DNA of 64,000 nt, taken from Dehalococcoidia bacterium (GTDB lineage Bacteria > Chloroflexota > Dehalococcoidia > Lucifugimonadales > UBA3495). Location of the stretch: assembly GCA_963422635.1 (NCBI GenBank), contig OY730415.1, positions 433,231-497,230 on the forward strand, read 5' to 3'. Below, piece after piece: positions 13,743-37,809 of this stretch. The notes below the pieces were generated by a model. That model made no database searches, had not been told where the DNA came from, and saw nothing but the letters and a program-made list of their open reading frames with translations. Numbering within the stretch: the stretch's first letter is position 1; every line of letters starts with the position of its first letter. A program made the position numbers and the translations under genes.

Positions 13743-15408
13743 ATGCCTAACACTCTCTACTACGGCGACAACTTGCAAGTCCTCCGGGAGTATGTCCCCG
13801 AAGAATCGGTGGACCTGGTTTACCTGGACCCGCCTTTTAACTCCAACGCCTCCTAACAACGTCCTGTTCCGGGAAAAGAGCGGCGAGGACTCGCCGGCCC
13901 AGATAAAAGCCTTCACCGACACCTGGGAATGGACGCTGGAAACGGAGCGCGCCTTTGAGCAGGACATCATCCTGCACCCGGGGACGCCGGCGGCGGTGAA
14001 GGAGATGATTGCCGCCTTCCGCCAGTTTATTGGCCGAAACGCAATGCTGGCCTATCTGGTAATGATGACGCCCCGCTTGGTGGAACTGCGCCGCATCCTC
14101 AAACCCACCGGCAGCCTCTACCTGCACTGCGACCCCACCGCCAGCCATTACCTCAAAATCCTGCTGGATGCAGTGTTCGGGGCAAGGAACTTTCGGAATG
14201 AGATTGTGTGGCGGCGTTATTCGTCTCACGGGAATGTTTCACGCAATTTGGGAAGGGTTCACGACGTTATATTTAGATACTCGAAGACAAAAAAATTTGT
14301 GTGGAATCAACTATTTCGACCTTTACGTGAAGAATATGTGGAAAAGTTCTTTCACAAGGTAGAACCTGAGACAGGCAGGCGTTATCAATCTCAAAATGTG
14401 CTTAATCCGAACGCTGACCGTCCTAATTTGACCTATGACTGGAACGGCTATACGAGAGTATGGAAGTGGTCAAGGGAAAGAATGCAACAACTTCACGCTG
14501 AAGGGAGGCTCGAGTATTCCCGAACGGGCTATCCAAGGCTGAAACAATACTTGGACGAATCTTTGGGCGAGCGTCTTCAAGACATTTGGGATGATCTAGC
14601 TCCAGTAGGGCAATCAGGAGAAGAAGTTAGCCTCGGCTATGATACCCAAAAACCCATGTCCTTGTTGGAGCGCATTATTCGGACATCCTCCAACGAAGGC
14701 GACGTGGTTTTAGACCCCTTCTGCGGCTGCGGGACGGCGGTAGCGGCGGCGCAGAAGCTGAACCGCCAGTGGCTGGGCATCGACATCACCCACTTGGCGG
14801 TGGCCCTGATGAAAAGCCGGCTCAAGACCGCCTTTGACCTGGAGCCGGGCCGGGACTATGCGGTGGTGGGCGAACCCCGGGACGCCGGCAGCGCCCGCGC
14901 CTTATGGGAGCAAGACCCCTACCAGTTCCAGTTTTGGGCGGTGTCCTTGCTGGAAGCCCAACCCTACGCAGCAAGAGTGGCGGAGCAGAAACGGGGCGCC
15001 GACCAGGGCATAGACGGGATAATCTACTTTGTGGACGGCCTCCGCCGGGAGCCGCAGAAGGTGGTAGTTCAGGTCAAGGGCGGGCGGGTATCCTCGCCCC
15101 AAATCCGCGACCTGAAGGGGGTGGTGGAACGGGAAAAGGCGGCGTTAGGGTTGTTCATCTCCTTGGAGGAACCGACGCGGGATATGCGGAAGGAGGAAGC
15201 CGGCGGCGGCTTTTACCGCTCCGACCTGTGGCAGCGGGATTTCCCGAAAATCCAGCTCCGCACCATCGACGAGCTGCTGGCCGGCCACAGCTTTGACCTG
15301 CCGCCGCGCCAACTGATGTACCAACCGGCGGAACGGGTGCGCTCCCCCGAAGGGGAACAGGGAGAGTTGGGGGTTGCGGACTTCGGTCTGCGCCGGCATG
15401 AAGGTTAA
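13743..15408 (+). pseudogene. beta-class N6/N4 DNA methyltransferase fused to a C-terminal Mrr-like PD-(D/E)xK nuclease domain, frameshifted after codon 37
   Basis: Frame 0 reads MPNTLYYGDNLQVLREYVPEESVDLVYLDPPFNSNAS then TAA at 13854. Frame +1 continues NNVLFREKSGEDSPAQIKAFTDTWEW ... YDTQKPMSLLERII ... DPFCGCGT ... GADQGIDGI...VVVQVKGG. Confidence 0.8.
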
Positions 15409-15659
15409 GGGCCAGCGGGAAGGCTAGGGGCCGGTATGCTCTCCCAATTATCCCAGTTACTACTACCGCAGAAAGCGTCCTTTCCCGAAATAGGGCCGTC
15501 AAACCTTTTCCCCTTCACCCCGTCCCTCCCCGCAACTTCTGCAGCGCTGGTATAGCCGCGATTTTCCCTTCTTCCAAGTCTGCCCAGCAGATGCCGGCGG
15601 GGTGGAGCGAGCCTTCGGCGTAGCGGATGACCTCATCCGGGGTTACGGCCTAGTCCAGG

Positions 15660-15743
15660 GGGACATCGTGGCTGGCGCGGGGAGTGCATAGTAATAATCG
15701 GAATACCCCGATTGTAAAACGGGACATCGTGGCTGGCGCGGGG
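15660..15743. repeat. repeat-insert-repeat unit A: 23-nt perfect direct repeat flanking a 38-nt AT-rich insert (period 61)
   Basis: GGGACATCGTGGCTGGCGCGGGG occurs at 15660-15682 and 15721-15743. The insert is AGTGCATAGTAATAATCGGAATACCCCGATTGTAAAAC (contains TAG TAA TAA and a small AATCGG/CCGATT hairpin). Confidence 0.9.
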
Positions 15744-16043
15744 CAGCGCCAGCAGCGGGGAACGGTGGTTAACGCCGGCGTGGCGGCGTTAACTATTCCG
15801 GCGGCGGCCAGCCCCTGCTCCAGGTCAGCATAACCGCCCCCTTGCCAATGCGGATGCCCTGCCAGTTGACCGCAACCGAGCCGGAGATTACCAAGGCCAC
15901 CGGTCGCATCTCCGCCACGTAAACCGACCGCCCGTAACGGAAGGCGCCGCCGGTGGTTGACGCTTGGGCCGGGGCGCAGCGCATAACCGACGGTCCAGCT
16001 CCACGAAGCGCTGCCCCTGCCGTAGCCGGGGAACGGCCACGAG

Positions 16044-16134
16044 GGCCAACGCCGGTGGCGCAGGGGACGCTGGAATCCCCGCCCGGTTGGTTCTCTACAG
16101 TCAGGCCAACGCCCGGTGGCGCCGGGGACGCTGG
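16044..16134. repeat. repeat-insert-repeat unit B: 30/31-nt direct repeat flanking a 30-nt insert (period 60)
   Basis: GGCCAACGCCGGTGGCGCAGGGGACGCTGG (16044-16073) versus GGCCAACGCCCGGTGGCGCCGGGGACGCTGG (16104-16134). One indel and one substitution between copies. Confidence 0.85.
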
Positions 16135-16350
16135 GCCTTGTCCGGGTTGCTTTGACTACTCGGGACGGCTGCCAGACTTCCAGGGCAAAACCCGTTGAGC
16201 GGCATTCTCAGCCCCATAAAAATCGGGGATTTTATCGTGGACGTTTTTGGCGAGCGCCACCCGGACTGTTCCAAGGCCGGCCACACCGCTTCTCTAATCG
16301 CAAATTTGTCCCGCAATCGCACCTCTGCTTTAGCCGGGAGTTTTCGTCCG

Positions 16351-17634
16351 CTACACCGACCGCGCATAGTCGGCGAAACTGCTGACCTGAGGTTGACCCG
16401 CCAGGTCAATCAGAGTGTGCCGGCTTTCCATCGGTTTACCGTCCAGCCGGTCTTTCAGCCAGTCGGCGGTCAGCGTAGCCGGGTTAGGCCCCAAGTCGGC
16501 GGAGGAGGAACCACCCAGGCCGTGGTCGGCTCCCTCATACAACACCAACTGCTTGGGCGCTTGGAGCGTGTCTAACAACTGATAGGTGAATTCGATGGGA
16601 CTGAGGTGGTCGTCCTCGCCGGCCAGCGCCAGATAAGGACAGGTTATCTTTTCGCCCACCCCTTCCAGGGTCATAGTTTCGGCGAAACGGTCGAACTCGT
16701 CCTCATCCTCGTAGCCGGACATATACATAAAGCGCAGCTTGAAGGTGGGCGAGGCCGCGTTAAAGATGGTGTTCATTCCCGGTTCGTGGCAGACCGCTTG
16801 CACCGCGCAGCCCTTAATCCGGTGGTCAATAGCGGCCACTTGAGTCCCCCAGAAGGAACCCATACTGTTGCCCCGAATAGCGATGCGCTCCGGGTCCAGC
16901 TCCGGCTGCGCCCGCATCCAGTCCAATACGGCCCGGCCGGCGTCCATCCAGTTGGTGGCCGTCACGTGGATGCCTCGGGTCAGGGCCTCCTTCTGGCCGG
17001 GGCCGTCAATAGCCAGCACGGCGATGCCCCGCTCCAGCAAGCGGTCGCCGTAGAGGGCCACGCCGGTTTCCTTGAAGCTATCCATGCCGGGGATGCTCAT
17101 CACACAGGGCAGTGGCCCCCGATTCCCGTCGGCGGAGGAGGCGCTAAAGGGGATGTTAGGCAGGTGCAGCCAGGCGGGGATGGCGCTATTCTGAAAGGGT
17201 ATATCGACCCGGCGGATTTCGTGGTTGGCGTATTGGACGTACTTGGTGTAGCACGCTACTTTCTTTTCGCCCAGCCGGTCATTTTCCGGGGTGTGGGCGA
17301 AAATGGGCCACTGGGCGCTGCCATATAGCAGGGCAGCGATGAAGTAGCTTTCCCCGGCGGCCACCGTATGCCCCTCCTCCTCATGAAGGCGGGCCTTGGC
17401 TTCCCGGCGGACGGCAGCGCGGCGGAACTCCCGGCTAGCGTCGTTGAAGCGTTTGGTGCGGGCGCGCACTCCGTTAAAGTCCGGCGCCGCTTCCGGGCCG
17501 CAAGGGCCCAGGGTATAACCGATCCGCCGCTGGTCCCACTCAATCCCCACGGTCTGAACCACCACGTCCAGCAACCAGCGCTGCTCCTGCCAGCGTTTCA
17601 TCCGTCGTTCTACTGCTGATTCCATTGCAGGCAT
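16351..17634 (-). CDS. alpha/beta hydrolase (DUF1100/FrsA-like, dihydropseudooxynicotine-hydrolase-like)
   Basis: 427 aa. Nucleophile elbow GNSMGSFWG. Late acid/His region GEDDHL and ADHG. Confidence 0.8.
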   Translation of the reverse strand: MPAMESAVERRMKRWQEQRWLLDVVVQTVGIEWDQRRIGYTLGPCGPEAAPDFNGVRARTKRFNDASREFRRAAVRREAKARLHEEEGHTVAAGESYFIAALLYGSAQWPIFAHTPENDRLGEKKVACYTKYVQYANHEIRRVDIPFQNSAIPAWLHLPNIPFSASSADGNRGPLPCVMSIPGMDSFKETGVALYGDRLLERGIAVLAIDGPGQKEALTRGIHVTATNWMDAGRAVLDWMRAQPELDPERIAIRGNSMGSFWGTQVAAIDHRIKGCAVQAVCHEPGMNTIFNAASPTFKLRFMYMSGYEDEDEFDRFAETMTLEGVGEKITCPYLALAGEDDHLSPIEFTYQLLDTLQAPKQLVLYEGADHGLGGSSSADLGPNPATLTADWLKDRLDGKPMESRHTLIDLAGQPQVSSFADYARSV

Positions 17635-17702
17635 AATACACTTCCTTACCCTTGATATCGTCGGCGATAATTATAGCCAATGTAGTCAACCGAGAGCGAA
17701 TA

Positions 17703-18013
17703 CTACATGGCGGCGGTCGGGGAGAATTGGCGAAGCGCAGGGGGGAAGGTAAAGCGGGATGCAGTCCCGTCCAGAGCGTCCAGCCGTTGCCCAACGACTT
17801 CAAAGCTCTTGTTCGTCGCCTCTACGAACTGCGCAAATTTATGGGGCAACTCCAGCAGTTTCCGGGGCAACAGCCGGGCGCCGGGCATTCGGCGCACTAG
17901 TACAGGTGCAGCTAGTCAAGCGGCGGCAGCAGCCGGGCGCGCAGGGCATTCGGCCACTCGGGGATTTCGGCCAGAATTCGAATTAAATCTTCGATAACGC
18001 TGATAGTCATCAT
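17703..18013 (-). pseudogene. small hypothetical ORF (84 codons if repaired) split by repeat-insert-repeat unit C
   Basis: MMTISVIEDLIRILAEIPEWPNALRARLLPPLD* (18013-17912), then track ORF 17703..17897 in another frame. Deleting 17871-17929 (59 nt) fuses them into one open frame. Confidence 0.35.
17871..17958. repeat. repeat-insert-repeat unit C: imperfect direct repeat of about 28 nt flanking an insert of about 32 nt (period 59)
   Basis: CAGCCGGGCGCCGGGCATTCGGCGCACT (17871..) versus CAGCCGGGCGCGCAGGGCATTCGGCCACT (17930..). The insert TAGTACAGGTGCAGCTAGTCAAGCGGCGGCAG carries stop codons. Confidence 0.8.
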
Positions 18014-18352: not shown

Positions 18353-19111
18353 ATGATGGTTATGCCAGCGCATTTGACGCCGCAAAAGGCGACTGAGCCG
18401 AACTATTTGCCCGAAAACGCTATTTACTGCGGTGATGCCTGCGAGCTACTGCAACGCGGGCATCCGGCTTCGGTGGCGCTGAGTTTCTGGTCGCCGCCCT
18501 ACTGCGTTGGCAAAACTTACGAGAAAGAGCTTACCTTTCCAAGTTGGCAAGGTTTGTTGAAAGAAGTAATCGCCTTGCATTACGAAATTATAAAACCCGG
18601 CGGCTTTCTGGCAATTAACATAGCGGATATTCTGTCTTTTTCCGACCCGGATACGCCCAGGGTTCAAGCCGATAATGTGGGGACAAAGAAGGTTAAGATA
18701 ACCGGAGAAGAGGCGCTGGCCGCTCAGAGAGCATACCCCGGCTATACCAGGTATCAACTGGCCGACCTTCTGGGTTGCAGCGAACAAACGGTTGACCGGA
18801 GATTGAATAACAACAAGGTCCGAGAAGGAAACGATTTTCTCACCACCATATTCGTAAAGTATAACTACCGGAGTGGAGCGGATAGAAACGACTTGATAGG
18901 CATTAGTATTATTTGCCTCCCCAACGGTATGCTTCAGGAAAGGTATAATCCTGACCAGGATGATTCTTTCTGGCGTGCCGGCAGAAACGCTCCGTCTCTC
19001 GGCGAGGTGTTTCGAGTAAGAATCGGCCTCCCGTCCCTGAAACGCAGGGCCAACTGGCGAGCGCAGCAGATACAGCTTGTCCCCGATTTAGCGCATCGTT
19101 GGGATGATTAG
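18353..19111 (+). pseudogene. truncated N4/N6 DNA methyltransferase (SPPY motif IV, internal HTH-like segment, no AdoMet motif I)
   Basis: VALSFWSPPYCVGKTYE, IIKPGGFLAINIAD and an HTH-like YTRYQLADLLGCSEQTVDRRLNN. The last ~90 codons are not MTase-like, and no FxGxG/DPFxGSGTT is found in any frame. Low GC. Confidence 0.5.
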
Positions 19112-19791: not shown

Positions 19792-19980
19792 GGACCGTTC
19801 CTTCACCATGAACCACTCCATACATGACATGATCGGGAACATCGCAGGCTCTCTTCTCAATCCCAGCCCGCGACCGAACCGCTCCATACATGATCTGGAA
19901 CATCCCTCCGAGAATGAAAGGGCTTGCGAGTAAGACGCCCTCAACTTGTGATTTCCTGCTTCAACTAATATACTGGGCCT

Positions 19981-33551: not shown

Positions 33552-34451
33552 GTGAAAGTTATTCTCTGCTCTCCCCGGGGCTTTTGCGCCGGAGTAGTCC
33601 GGGCGATTCAGGTAGTGGAGCAATGCCTGGAGCGGTTCGGGCCGCCCATCTATGTCAAACATCAGATTGTCCATAACCCCTACGTGGTCGAGGGACTGGA
33701 ACGCAAGGGGGCCATCACCGTGGCGGCAGTGGCGGAAATTCCGCCGGGATCGCGGGTGGTATTCTCGGCCCACGGCTCTCCCCCGGAGGATTTTGAGCAA
33801 GCTCGAGAGCGCGACCTTCAGGTTATCGACGCCGTTTGTCCCCTGGTAACCCGGGTGCACAACGAGGCTGTCAAGTATCATCGGGAGGGCCGCAAGGTAA
33901 TCCTGGTGGGGCATGCCGGGCATCAGGAAGTTAAAGGAACTATGGGCCAGGCCCCGATGCTTCTGGTGGATGAGAGCTCGGATAACCAGACGCCGGAATG
34001 GGATCCGGATACGCCGGTGGCGGTGCTGACTCAAACCACCCTATCCGTCGGCGATACCGCCGCGGCTATCGACCGCATCAAGCGGCGTTTTCCCCAAGCC
34101 CAGGTGCGTAACGACATCTGTTACGCCACCACCAATCGCCAGGCGGCGGTTAGCCAGATGGCCTCCCTGGTGGACTTGGCGCTGGTAATCGGCGCTCAAA
34201 ACAGCTCAAACTGCAACCGACTTCTGGAGCTTGCCAAGTCCTTGGGGACGCCGGCCTACTTGATTAACGGCCCAGAGGAAATCTCCCCGGACTGGCTGGA
34301 CGGCAAGGAAACCGTAGGTATCGCCTCCGGCGCCTCCACGCCGGAAGCGCTCGTGGATGCAGTCATTACGGCGTTGAACCCGGACCAGGTAACCTTGCTG
34401 GAAGGGGTGGAGGAAAACATCACCTTTACTATGCCCCGGGAACTGCAATAA
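33552..34451 (+). CDS. ispH: 4-hydroxy-3-methylbut-2-enyl diphosphate reductase
   Basis: GTG start after GGAGGAAGG. PRGFCAGVVRAI, AVCPLVTRVH and ICYATTNRQ carry the three cluster cysteines. Confidence 0.9.
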   Translation: MKVILCSPRGFCAGVVRAIQVVEQCLERFGPPIYVKHQIVHNPYVVEGLERKGAITVAAVAEIPPGSRVVFSAHGSPPEDFEQARERDLQVIDAVCPLVTRVHNEAVKYHREGRKVILVGHAGHQEVKGTMGQAPMLLVDESSDNQTPEWDPDTPVAVLTQTTLSVGDTAAAIDRIKRRFPQAQVRNDICYATTNRQAAVSQMASLVDLALVIGAQNSSNCNRLLELAKSLGTPAYLINGPEEISPDWLDGKETVGIASGASTPEALVDAVITALNPDQVTLLEGVEENITFTMPRELQ

Positions 34452-36840: not shown

Positions 36841-37809
36841 CTACCTTATCTTCCCGTCCCGACTGGAAAAGCTGTTCAGGAAATGGTCGAAGGCATCCCG
36901 ATACCGCTCAATGGAACTTTCACAGGCTGACCATTTCACCTCCAGGATGTAATGGTTGGTTACCGAAGCCAACCTGGCCCGTTCTTCATCACACCACCTC
37001 GTCGATTCCACTCGGTAATGGTGCAGATACTGCCACCTGCGAAGCTCGCCGTGTTTGGTCACATAATCGGAGGAAATGACCTCATCTCCCCCTTCCCGCT
37101 TGGCAACCTCCTCAGCAGTTACCGAATGCCTCCAGAAGCAAATGGCGTGTCGGTTCACCTCGCCCCAAAAGCGCCAGTTGAAGGAAACTCTGGCCTTTCG
37201 GTCCAGGCTCTGAAAAGCAAAGTTGCCCTCGGCTTGGCGGCACTTGACTTTACCCTCGCCATCTAAAGTAAACGGCGAGGCATAAGGCTCATCTCCTACC
37301 CAACCAACCGGGATATCCACCTTGAAATCGTGCCCATCCACTTCATAGGTTTCCCATATCACCTCAACCGGAGCCGGCGTAGAGGTAGGCTCCAGCGTAG
37401 CTGTCGGCCTGGGCGTAGGCGTGAGCGTAGGCCTTGGGGTAGGAGTAGGGGTAGCCGTTGGCGGCGGTGTCGGAGTCGGTGTCGGTTCCGGCGTTGGCGT
37501 TGGCGTAGGGGTAGCCGTTGGCGGCGGCGGCGGTGTCGGTTCCGGCGTTGGCGTTGGCGTAGGGGTAGCCGTTGGCGGCGGCGGCGGTGTCGGTTCCGGC
37601 GTTGGCGTTGGCGTTGGGGTAGCCGGCGGCGGTGTCGGTGTCGGTTCCGGCGTTGGCGCTGGGGTAGCCGTCGGCGCGGCGTCCAGGAGCTGATTCACTT
37701 GAACCGTTACCGTAGCCGGAATGTCCGGCGTGGCGGTGGGCGGCGGCGGGGTGGCGCAAGCAACCAGAACAACCAACGACAATGACAGCAATAGCAAGAA
37801 CGTTTTCAT
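36841..37809 (-). CDS. lipoprotein with a Pro/Thr-rich tandem-repeat linker and a C-terminal globular domain of unknown family
   Basis: Signal peptide plus lipobox MKTFLLLLSLSLVVLVAC. About 120 aa of PTPTPEPTPPPPPTAT repeats. C-terminal ~170 aa unassigned. Confidence 0.7.
   Translation of the reverse strand: MKTFLLLLSLSLVVLVACATPPPPTATPDIPATVTVQVNQLLDAAPTATPAPTPEPTPTPPPATPTPTPTPEPTPPPPPTATPTPTPTPEPTPPPPPTATPTPTPTPEPTPTPTPPPTATPTPTPRPTLTPTPRPTATLEPTSTPAPVEVIWETYEVDGHDFKVDIPVGWVGDEPYASPFTLDGEGKVKCRQAEGNFAFQSLDRKARVSFNWRFWGEVNRHAICFWRHSVTAEEVAKREGGDEVISSDYVTKHGELRRWQYLHHYRVESTRWCDEERARLASVTNHYILEVKWSACESSIERYRDAFDHFLNSFSSRDGKIR
37421..37693. repeat. 54-bp tandem repeat (about 5 units, two identical) encoding the Pro/Thr linker
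   Basis: The unit GGCGTTGGCGTTGGCGTAGGGGTAGCCGTTGGCGGCGGCGGCGGTGTCGGTTCC is repeated back to back from about 37497. Flanking units are diverged. Confidence 0.85.

Follow-up and report, generated by a model that had tools for sequence, protein, structure and literature searches.

Isolated repeat-insert-repeat units in a Dehalococcoidia genome as very probable scars of off-target spacer integration by its type I-E Cas1-Cas2

Three short structures, units A, B, and C, in a 64,000-nt window (the whole stretch of DNA analysed) of a Dehalococcoidia/SAR202-type MAG, which is a single closed 2.64-Mb contig, raise the question of what process placed an insert between two direct copies of a local sequence outside any CRISPR array. 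The first-pass annotation had described three repeat-insert-repeat structures here, and all of them are present in the sequence. They are not a canonical CRISPR array, as each consists of only two copies of a different local sequence, which is part of a gene in relatives, and the true array lies 0.9 Mb away. The features are as follows.

15520..16320, minus strand: decayed 5-formyltetrahydrofolate cyclo-ligase pseudogene that hosts units A and B, from alignment with five relatives
15660..15682, no strand assigned: unit A copy 1, 23-nt exact target duplicate, GGGACATCGTGGCTGGCGCGGGG
15683..15720, no strand assigned: unit A insert, 38 nt, made up of AGTGC (5 non-ancestral nt) and the 33-nt ATAGTAATAATCGGAATACCCCGATTGTAAAAC; 33% GC
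15721..15748, no strand assigned: unit A copy 2, ancestral 28-nt target GGGACATCGTGGCTGGCGCGGGGCAGCG, of which the first 23 nt are duplicated
16045..16071, plus strand: unit B copy 1, 27 nt, the 28-nt target less one C and with one substitution
16072..16104, plus strand: unit B spacer-like insert, 33 nt, GGAATCCCCGCCCGGTTGGTTCTCTACAGTCAG
16105..16132, plus strand: unit B copy 2, 28-nt target GCCAACGCCCGGTGGCGCCGGGGACGCT
17703..18012, minus strand: N-terminal gene remnant interrupted by unit C (224 aa in relative G002, no Pfam family)
17867..17892, plus strand: unit C copy 1, 26 nt, the 28-nt target less 2 nt and with one substitution, in the register of the target PWM
17893..17925, plus strand: unit C spacer-like insert, 33 nt, CGCACTAGTACAGGTGCAGCTAGTCAAGCGGCG
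17926..17953, plus strand: unit C copy 2, 28-nt target GCAGCAGCCGGGCGCGCAGGGCATTCGG

The two copies of unit A (15660-15682 and 15721-15743) were 23/23 identical at a spacing of 61 nt, giving 23 exact nt plus 38 nt and a total of 61, and AGG stands directly 5′ of copy 1, as at the leader end of the genome's array. AGG also directly precedes copy 1 of unit B, the register of which was set by the target PWM (10.3 bits), with consensus matches in copy 2 at G (position 0), CC (7-8), G (11), GG (19-20), and A (23). Units A and C scored only about 5 bits each, and their orientation is uncertain. The duplication length had earlier been regarded as variable; however, allowing for slightly decayed copies, units B and C re-register as 28+33 units, so that variable geometry no longer applies to them, while unit A stays atypical at 23+38. 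The target duplication of units B and C is thus of the array repeat length (28 nt) and their inserts are of the array spacer length (33 nt), unit A being the exception with an insert of 38 nt, or 5 + 33. Similarly, the lower GC content ascribed to the inserts was found for A (33%), but not for B and C, which by direct count have about 61% in the 33-nt register.

Orthologous loci were then compared with the unit-bearing sites. Units A and B were missing from five relatives, which carry a single target copy and no insert, the unit A site reading ...GGGGCAGCG... without interruption; likewise, unit C was missing from the G002 orthologue and two paralogues (single target copy, no insert). Clean empty sites were also found for the units u204110, u302307, and u1564069, and none of 22 further units sought in four congeners was present (0/22). 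By these alignments, units A, B, and C are insertions relative to an ancestral empty site; since the "repeat" of each unit is a local sequence that is single-copy in the relatives' orthologues, insertion with target duplication is indicated rather than an imported array. Excision of the 59 nt of unit C fused two tblastn segments lying in different frames into one frame covering residues 1-62 of the G002 orthologue, in agreement with the earlier claim that its removal restores an uninterrupted reading frame. For units A and B, excision regained colinearity with the orthologues, but several further frameshifts and a TAG still disrupt the gene. In detail, the lesions of the cyclo-ligase pseudogene besides the two units comprise several 1-nt deletions, short in-frame deletions, and the TAG, and tblastn still ran over three frames after excision, whereas the G004 orthologue is intact and matches Pfam PF01812.

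Neither cas genes nor an array are present in the window, as noted at first pass, but elsewhere the genome carries a complete type I-E operon together with an array of 196 repeats. The array has a 28-nt repeat (28 invariant positions) with a period of 61, and 192/195 of its spacers are 33 nt. The adjoining operon, cas3-cse1-cse2-cas7-cas5-cas6e-cas1-cas2, has all frames open, and 7/8 of its products gave Pfam matches, the ORF at the cse1 position giving none; the adaptation module is encoded, with Cas1 (PF01867) and a I-E Cas2 (PF09707). The array runs on the minus strand, its leader lying at the 1354220 end, as shown by the orientation of the cas operon and by the likeness to the E. coli repeat. 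The search for cas1 was made for one cas1 locus only, using this genome's Cas1 as the only query. A second small array, of 6 repeats with a different I-E-like repeat, lies at genome positions 318153-318485.

Further units of the same period were sought across the genome. Direct repeats with an exact match of 14 nt or more occurred 234 times at spacing 61 and 41 times at spacing 60, compared with 0-5 times at spacings 58, 59, 62, 64, and 65. A mismatch-tolerant scan outside the array recovered 53 loci at spacing 61 and 48 at spacing 60, and only 0-2 loci at other spacings that are not multiples of 3. Some matches at spacings 60 and 63 were genuine coding tandem repeats, e.g., window positions 37430-37667. 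In total, about 87 isolated two-copy units were found outside the array, with spacings of 59-62, mostly 60 or 61. Their geometry peaks at 28+33, with a duplication mode of 28 genome-wide, and the copies of units differ by point mutations. Period 60, i.e., a 27-nt duplication, was observed in one third of the ectopic units vs. 0/195 in the array, which means that the ruler loses precision on non-cognate sequence; this 27-nt duplication, and not selection, mainly accounts for the 60-nt class. In unit A and about 15 others, only 18-25 nt are duplicated, yet the unit still totals 60 or 61. These short-duplication units are outside the prediction of a simple integration model; the bases missing from the duplicate showed no consistent side bias, and the cause of the 23+38 split of unit A is a matter of inference. 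Three-repeat mini-arrays at genome positions 1054976, 2350222, and 2582555 represent re-use of ectopic sites.

To characterize the target sites, a PWM was built from the 44 clean ectopic targets only, which were oriented by EM started without reference to the repeat. The consensus obtained was agg|G.....CCC..G......GGG..A, and the real leader-repeat junction, caagg|GGTTCCCCCGCTCACGCGGGGATAGACC, scored 12.8 bits on this matrix, compared with -2.6 +/- 2.9 (maximum 5.2) in the EM control of 500 random-site sets. The same PWM gave a median of 5.1 bits on the independent solo units of G003 vs. 1.4 bits at random sites (p = 4e-6). At the level of sequence, the ectopic targets resemble the leader-repeat junction of the array together with its two stem motifs. 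No conserved motif, an IHF-like one included, was seen upstream of position -3 at the ectopic sites.

The origin of the inserts could be traced in part. Nine inserts matched other loci of the same chromosome, the matched stretch typically being exactly 33 nt; two of the nine came from the cas operon itself, and some source loci were hundreds of kb distant. One insert overlapped an array spacer by 22-23 nt. Self DNA accounted for 9/87 ectopic inserts (about 10%) but for only 1/195 array spacers (0.5%; Fisher p = 1.4e-4), in which selection would act against self-targeting. No PAM consensus was found flanking the self protospacers. When all 88 inserts were compared with 61 family genomes, only the self-derived ones recurred, in orthologous genes, and none matched cultured phages. 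Inserts A, B, and C had no second match anywhere in the genome or in sampled relatives; together with three other inserts, they gave 0 matches of exact 24-mers in IMG/VR and 0 in JGI metagenomes. Phage matches, which the first-pass annotation had proposed to look for, were absent for the three inserts, with no protospacer found in IMG/VR, JGI metagenomes, cultured phages, or relatives.

The occurrence of units was next related to Cas1 by counting spacing-61 solo units per 400-kb sample. G000 had 10 and 4 in two samples; among genomes with cas1, G003 had 19, G016 had 4, and G012 and G001 had 0, and the congeners G002 and G004, which lack cas1, also had 0. Among the sampled genomes, solo units were thus seen only in those encoding a related Cas1.

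The units were unevenly placed relative to genes. No coding flank was present for 60/87 units and only 2/87 were intragenic, both of them 60 nt and in frame, whereas 1660 unoccupied PWM-matching sites lacked a coding flank in 13.5% and were intragenic in 55% (p = 3e-32 and 2e-27, respectively). By a codon-usage classifier and inspection, most units lay between genes, a short way upstream of a start codon, or in dead DNA. From this depletion in coding DNA, purifying selection was inferred, although the depletion could partly stem from the integrase favouring certain DNA contexts. A count of "25 disrupted genes" and an apparent in-frame selection of the 60-nt class were rejected as artefacts of a coding test by longest stop-free frame, which over-called genes in DNA as rich in GC as this.

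Units A, B, and C are very probably ectopic spacer integrations by the genome's own type I-E Cas1-Cas2, as the first-pass annotation had suggested; that suggestion is now supported by the array geometry, the cas operon, the target motif, and the empty sites. The geometry, the target motif, the origin of some inserts, the empty sites, the association with cas1, and the depletion in coding DNA are observed, and the enzymology is inferred. In the normal reaction, Cas1-Cas2 would put a 33-bp prespacer where the leader meets the repeat, through two attacks staggered by 28 bp; gap repair would then duplicate the 28-bp repeat. At low frequency, chromosomal sites mimicking the minimal recognition features may be used instead, namely AGG|G where the upstream cut falls, a run of C at positions 6-8, and one of G at 18-20. 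These C- and G-runs match the two inverted-repeat "ruler anchors" of E. coli. The expected product would be an insertion of 61 bp (sometimes 60 bp), i.e., a target duplication of 28 bp (or 27 bp) around a 33-bp spacer. Selection would then purge insertions in functional genes, and the survivors would build up in intergenic DNA and pseudogenes and decay there, which would account for the few lost and substituted bases seen in the first copies of units B and C.

An assembly artefact, in which an assembler or polisher made structures of about 61 nt in a strain-variable region, e.g., through a k-mer near 61, is suggested by a period close to common k-mer sizes, and no read-level evidence speaks against it, nor is an independent assembly encoding the neighbouring genes on record. 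However, an artefact would not copy the 28+33 geometry of the genome's own array, favour targets like the leader-repeat junction, avoid coding DNA, or be limited to relatives encoding a related Cas1. Nor would it draw inserts from distant chromosomal loci as exact 33-nt copies, take up a fragment that overlaps an array spacer, or give copies that differ by point mutations, and the genome is a single closed contig. This explanation is considered extremely unlikely; its exclusion is strong but, without reads, only indirect.

Simple tandem duplications with a diverged middle, or slippage products unrelated to CRISPR, might in principle also leave direct repeats some 60 nt apart, and genuine coding tandem repeats do exist among the matches at spacings 60 and 63. 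That the inserts might be diverged copies of adjacent sequence had been named at first pass as a possible refutation, but it was not borne out: the inserts are unlike the flanking copies or anything nearby, and the orthologues carry one target copy and nothing insert-like. Moreover, spacings lie sharply at 60/61 rather than spread, and some inserts come from loci hundreds of kb off; such an origin is considered refuted. Relics of canonical mini-CRISPR arrays, or the work of another integrase (casposase-like or unknown) making 28-bp duplications around a cargo of about 33 bp, have in their favour the 6-repeat array with its different repeat and a cas1 search restricted to a single locus and query. 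Yet each "repeat" is local and present once in the relatives' orthologous genes, and the units agree with the resident I-E system in duplication length, insert length, and target motif; moreover, every insert sequence is different, which means that there is no mobile-element cargo. These origins are thus regarded as highly unlikely, and ectopic integration by the resident Cas1-Cas2 is retained.

The canonical type I-E acquisition uses two molecular rulers (Goren et al., 2016, PMC5039180), and the units share with it the 28-bp repeat duplication and the 33-bp spacer. The conserved ectopic positions correspond to its leader-proximal G, IR1 C-run, and IR2 G-run, and the ectopic G-run stops 8 nt short of the distal cut, in line with the IR2 anchor, but integration here is not at the leader-repeat junction. 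Ectopic acquisition inside arrays is known from the type II-A systems of Streptococcus thermophilus and S. mutans (PMC7999890, PMC5338259), in which the spacer likewise enters elsewhere than at the leader-proximal repeat; those events use genuine internal repeats, whereas here unrelated chromosomal targets are used and a new pseudo-repeat is made.

The closest likeness is to what Nivala, Shipman and Church (2018, Nat Microbiol 3:310) reported for the type I-E Cas1-Cas2 of E. coli, namely off-target integration, or the generation of "neo-CRISPR" units. As described in papers citing that work, the E. coli events have in common with the units a type I-E system, a spacer-sized insert, a repeat-length duplication, chromosomal sites outside the array, and targets partly like the leader-repeat junction; ectopic sites there can also gain spacers to form small arrays, as at the three 3-repeat loci here. 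In E. coli, nearby IHF-like sites are reported to favour ectopic events, in contrast to the lack of a conserved motif upstream of -3 here. The E. coli events came from cultures over-producing Cas1-Cas2, whereas the present case comprises about 87 fixed events in one wild uncultivated genome, more events in a congener, and signs of age and of purifying selection. For natural off-target integration, a paper citing Nivala et al. (2018) gives "circumstantial evidence" in two other species and calls a meaningful natural rate "unclear".

The units very probably show, in a wild organism, a side reaction for which E. coli in the laboratory has been the main source. We lean towards the view, with some reservation, that in this sponge-associated Dehalococcoidia (SAR202-type) lineage off-target integration acts as a sustained natural source of mutation and is more than a rare accident. 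Hundreds of integrations may have occurred, of which selection removed the genic ones and left about 87 scars, with a similar or higher density in the congener G003, and the process may seed new mini-CRISPR arrays. Since the scars are presumably not expressed, they may record capture by Cas1-Cas2 free of interference-driven selection. The about 87 scars, those in relatives, three nascent arrays, and a footprint of purifying selection form a natural data set, whose target logo yields the leader-repeat junction and the ruler anchors with no experiment needed. Such a set allows tests of what CRISPR adaptation costs in fitness, how new arrays originate, and which intrinsic self/non-self bias spacer capture has. 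Two-copy units are likely missed by tools that expect several repeats, and in annotation they can pass for assembly errors or frameshifted genes.

The genome carrying units A, B and C is closed (2,639,581 bp, 59% GC), and its main CRISPR array, at genome positions 1342301-1354220, comprises 196 repeats with 28 invariant positions and a period of 61, 192 of the 195 spacers being 33 nt long. Units A, B and C therefore share the period of the organism's own CRISPR unit. The first-pass annotation had left cas1 and cas2 to be sought outside the window, and both were located beside this array in a complete type I-E operon on the minus strand (cas3-cse1-cse2-cas7-cas5-cas6e-cas1-cas2), with all frames open and Pfam matches for every product except that of the ORF in the cse1 position. 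Given the operon's strand, the leader was placed at the 1354220 end of the array, where the repeat reads 5'-GGTTCCCCCGCTCACGCGGGGATAGACC-3' and the upstream sequence ends in ...ACGTCAAGG. All 196 repeats, the terminal one included, are nearly identical, and several spacers are duplicated, some in opposite orientation (e.g., 1345075 vs. 1345685). A self-targeting spacer near the old end (C1:1343977-1344009) perfectly matches chromosome positions 2048467-2048499, which are flanked by ...CCAGGG and GGATCC.... A second small array (C1:318153-318485) has six repeats of period 61 (GTATCCTCCGCGCACCGACCGGTGAACC, some diverged) that are I-E-like but different; two readings fit it, an old neo-CRISPR array and a canonical array in decay.

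Counting exact direct repeats (14 nt or longer) over the whole genome gave 234 runs with a spacing of 61 and 41 with a spacing of 60, vs. 0-5 runs at spacings 58, 59, 62, 64, and 65. The main array accounted for 194 of these runs, and 71 isolated two-copy units were found outside it from exact seeds. A mismatch-tolerant scan yielded about 87 such solo units, 51 at spacing 61, 29 at 60, 4 at 59, and 3 at 62, with 0-2 loci at each remaining spacing that is not a multiple of 3; further units of the same period, for which a search had been proposed, do exist. Their most frequent anatomy is a 28-nt duplication with a 33-nt insert, and three loci (genome 1054976, 2350222, and 2582555) contain a third repeat and a second spacer. 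For at least one 60-nt unit, the insert matches its source over 33 nt, indicating that the 60-nt class represents a 27-nt duplication, not a shorter spacer. The copies are identical in 43/87 units, while the others carry point changes, amounting to 4.8% of compared positions overall. Their density is raised between 0.3 and 1.5 Mb; the cumulative GC skew reaches its minimum at 541,609 and maximum at 2,079,813, and the genome measures 2.64 Mb vs. 3.3-4.1 Mb in four same-genus genomes. A fourth unit, degenerate in form, may lie at window 19810-19905, where about 36 nt are duplicated (GAACCACTCCATACATGA...GGAACATC) at spacing 66/61 around an unrelated middle of about 30 nt, but its geometry is non-canonical and the evidence weak. 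A coding-type tandem repeat at window 37430-37667 (54-nt period, GGCGTTGGCGTTGGCGTAGGGGTAGCC..., 4.4 copies) adds to the spacing-60 background and is unrelated to the CRISPR-like units.

The three structures were present at the positions claimed for them, with the register of B and C set by the genome-wide target consensus:

Unit A: copies at window 15660-15682 and 15721-15743, 23 nt each, identical, spacing 61
Unit B: copy 1 at 16045-16071, 27 nt; insert 16072-16104, 33 nt; copy 2 at 16105-16132, 28 nt
Unit C: copy 1 at 17867-17892, 26 nt; insert 17893-17925, 33 nt; copy 2 at 17926-17953, 28 nt

B and C had been described as about 30 + 30 and 28 + 32 nt with indels. The indels are real, copy 1 of B having lost one C of a C-run and copy 1 of C 2 nt, each with one substitution; the lengths, however, become a 28-nt target and a 33-nt insert, so that in this register both units are canonical. 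Unit A and about 15 others have short duplications (18-25 nt), while the total is still 60/61. Compared with relatives, copy 2 of unit A is the ancestral sequence, and copy 1 is followed by five foreign bases; speculatively, gap repair may have kept a 5' flap where the prespacer strand was longer.

To define target specificity, 44 clean targets were oriented by EM started without reference to the array repeat. The consensus, agg/G.....CCC..G......GGG..A (slash, upstream cut; position 0 follows it), holds information wholly within positions -3 to +23 and agrees with the real junction, caagg/GGTTCCCCCGCTCACGCGGGGATAGACC, at A -3, G -2, G -1, G 0, the C-run 6-8, the G-run 18-20, and A 23. Under the resulting position weight matrix (PWM) the real leader-repeat junction scored 12.8 bits, vs. 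-2.6 +/- 2.9 (maximum 5.2) for control PWMs from the same EM on 500 random-site sets. On independent solo units of the congener G003 the median was 5.1 vs. 1.4 bits at random sites of that genome (p = 4e-6). Unit B fitted strongly (10.3 bits; AGG/G, CC at 7-8, GG at 19-20, A at 23), and A and C weakly (about 5 bits). In E. coli, two inverted-repeat motifs anchor two molecular rulers (Goren et al., PMC5039180); the conserved C-run and G-run correspond to these motifs, and the G-run likewise stops 8 nt short of the distal cut.

Nine inserts have matches elsewhere on this chromosome (100% for four, one mismatch for five), typically over exactly 33 nt; two of these originate in the cas operon. Another insert and an array spacer have 22-23 nt of sequence in common and therefore come from the same source DNA. 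No PAM consensus was found at the self protospacers. The self-derived share is higher in ectopic units (9/87) than in the array (1/195; Fisher p = 1.4e-4), from which it is inferred that counter-selection against self-targeting spacers acts only where they are expressed. Window 33671-33704 (genome 466901-466934) is the protospacer, with one mismatch, of the 33/34-nt insert at genome 784143, and the window thus holds one donor and three acceptor sites. The first-pass annotation would have been refuted by inserts that were diverged copies of adjacent sequence, i.e., simple tandem duplications; this was not seen, as inserts A, B, and C showed no similarity to their flanks, elsewhere in the genome, or in sampled relatives, and no source was found in these or in family genomes, IMG/VR, JGI metagenomes, or cultured phages.

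Units A and B lie inside minus-strand remains of a 5-formyltetrahydrofolate cyclo-ligase gene, whose intact orthologue in the congener G004 matches PF01812. Both sites are uninterrupted in five relatives (four of the same genus), with a single target copy and no insert. Excision had been claimed to restore continuity at A and B; relatives do read through both sites, but the window's copy, even with both excised, remains split over three frames. It has also acquired a TAG, short deletions, and several 1-nt deletions, and these defects together identify it as a decayed pseudogene. Across window 15520-16320, comparison with the five relatives shows a TAT-to-TAG change and at least six small deletions, a pattern suggesting that dead genes in this lineage may undergo deletion-biased decay. 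Unit C splits what remains of the N-terminal part of a gene that encodes 224 aa in the congener G002, and its 59 nt are missing from that orthologue and two paralogues. Here the claimed restoration held, since without the 59 nt two tblastn segments fuse into one in-frame match (residues 1-62). When 22 other units were searched with flanks in four congeners, no match spanned a unit, and clean empty sites were recovered for the solo units u204110, u302307, and u1564069. These sequence comparisons show the polarity of the units to be insertion. Two ORFs that, from translations alone, look DNA-methyltransferase-like (window 13792-15408 and 18353-19111) flank the A-B-C region; the stretch has the appearance of a variable island for defence or restriction-modification, with dead genes in it.

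Array geometry, target motif, the origin of some inserts elsewhere in the genome, and empty sites all fit the proposed ectopic Cas1-Cas2 integration, and units A, B, and C very probably arose in this way, as judged without read-level evidence; no independent assembly covering the locus was found on record. The nearest precedent is the non-canonical integration of spacers by Cas1-Cas2 of the E. coli type I-E system, obtained with over-produced enzyme (Nivala, Shipman and Church, 2018). According to papers citing that work, evidence for natural occurrence has been circumstantial only. The present case shows every defining feature on which the analysis gave a clear outcome. In contrast to the over-producing E. 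coli, this set is natural and unusually large, an instance of an already known process.

G001, G003, G012, G016, and G018 carry a closely related Cas1 (80-83% identity), which the congeners G002 and G004 lack. Solo-unit load, which differs among lineages, was compared in 400-kb genome samples.

Spacing-61 units in 400-kb samples of genomes with or without related Cas1
This genome (two samples): Cas1 yes; 10 and 4
G003: yes; 19
G016: yes; 4
G012: yes; 0
G001: yes; 0
G002: no; 0
G004: no; 0

With zero units without Cas1 and 0-19 with it, the enzyme looks necessary but not sufficient for solo units.

Stop-free frames proved misleading as a coding test and were replaced by a codon-usage classifier applied to 150-nt flanks.

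Coding context of solo units, random positions, and 1660 unoccupied PWM sites (at least 9 bits)
No coding flank: 60/87 units; 17% random; 13.5% unoccupied
One coding flank: 25/87; 32%; 29%
Intragenic: 2/87; 48%; 55%

The excess without a coding flank (p = 3e-32) and the intragenic deficit (p = 2e-27) indicated that surviving units have passed a strong filter, for which purifying selection is the simplest explanation, and integration events probably far outnumbered the units that remain. Both intragenic units are 60 nt and in frame. The cluster of three units within 2.3 kb fits such filtering, because A, B, and C all lie in dead DNA.
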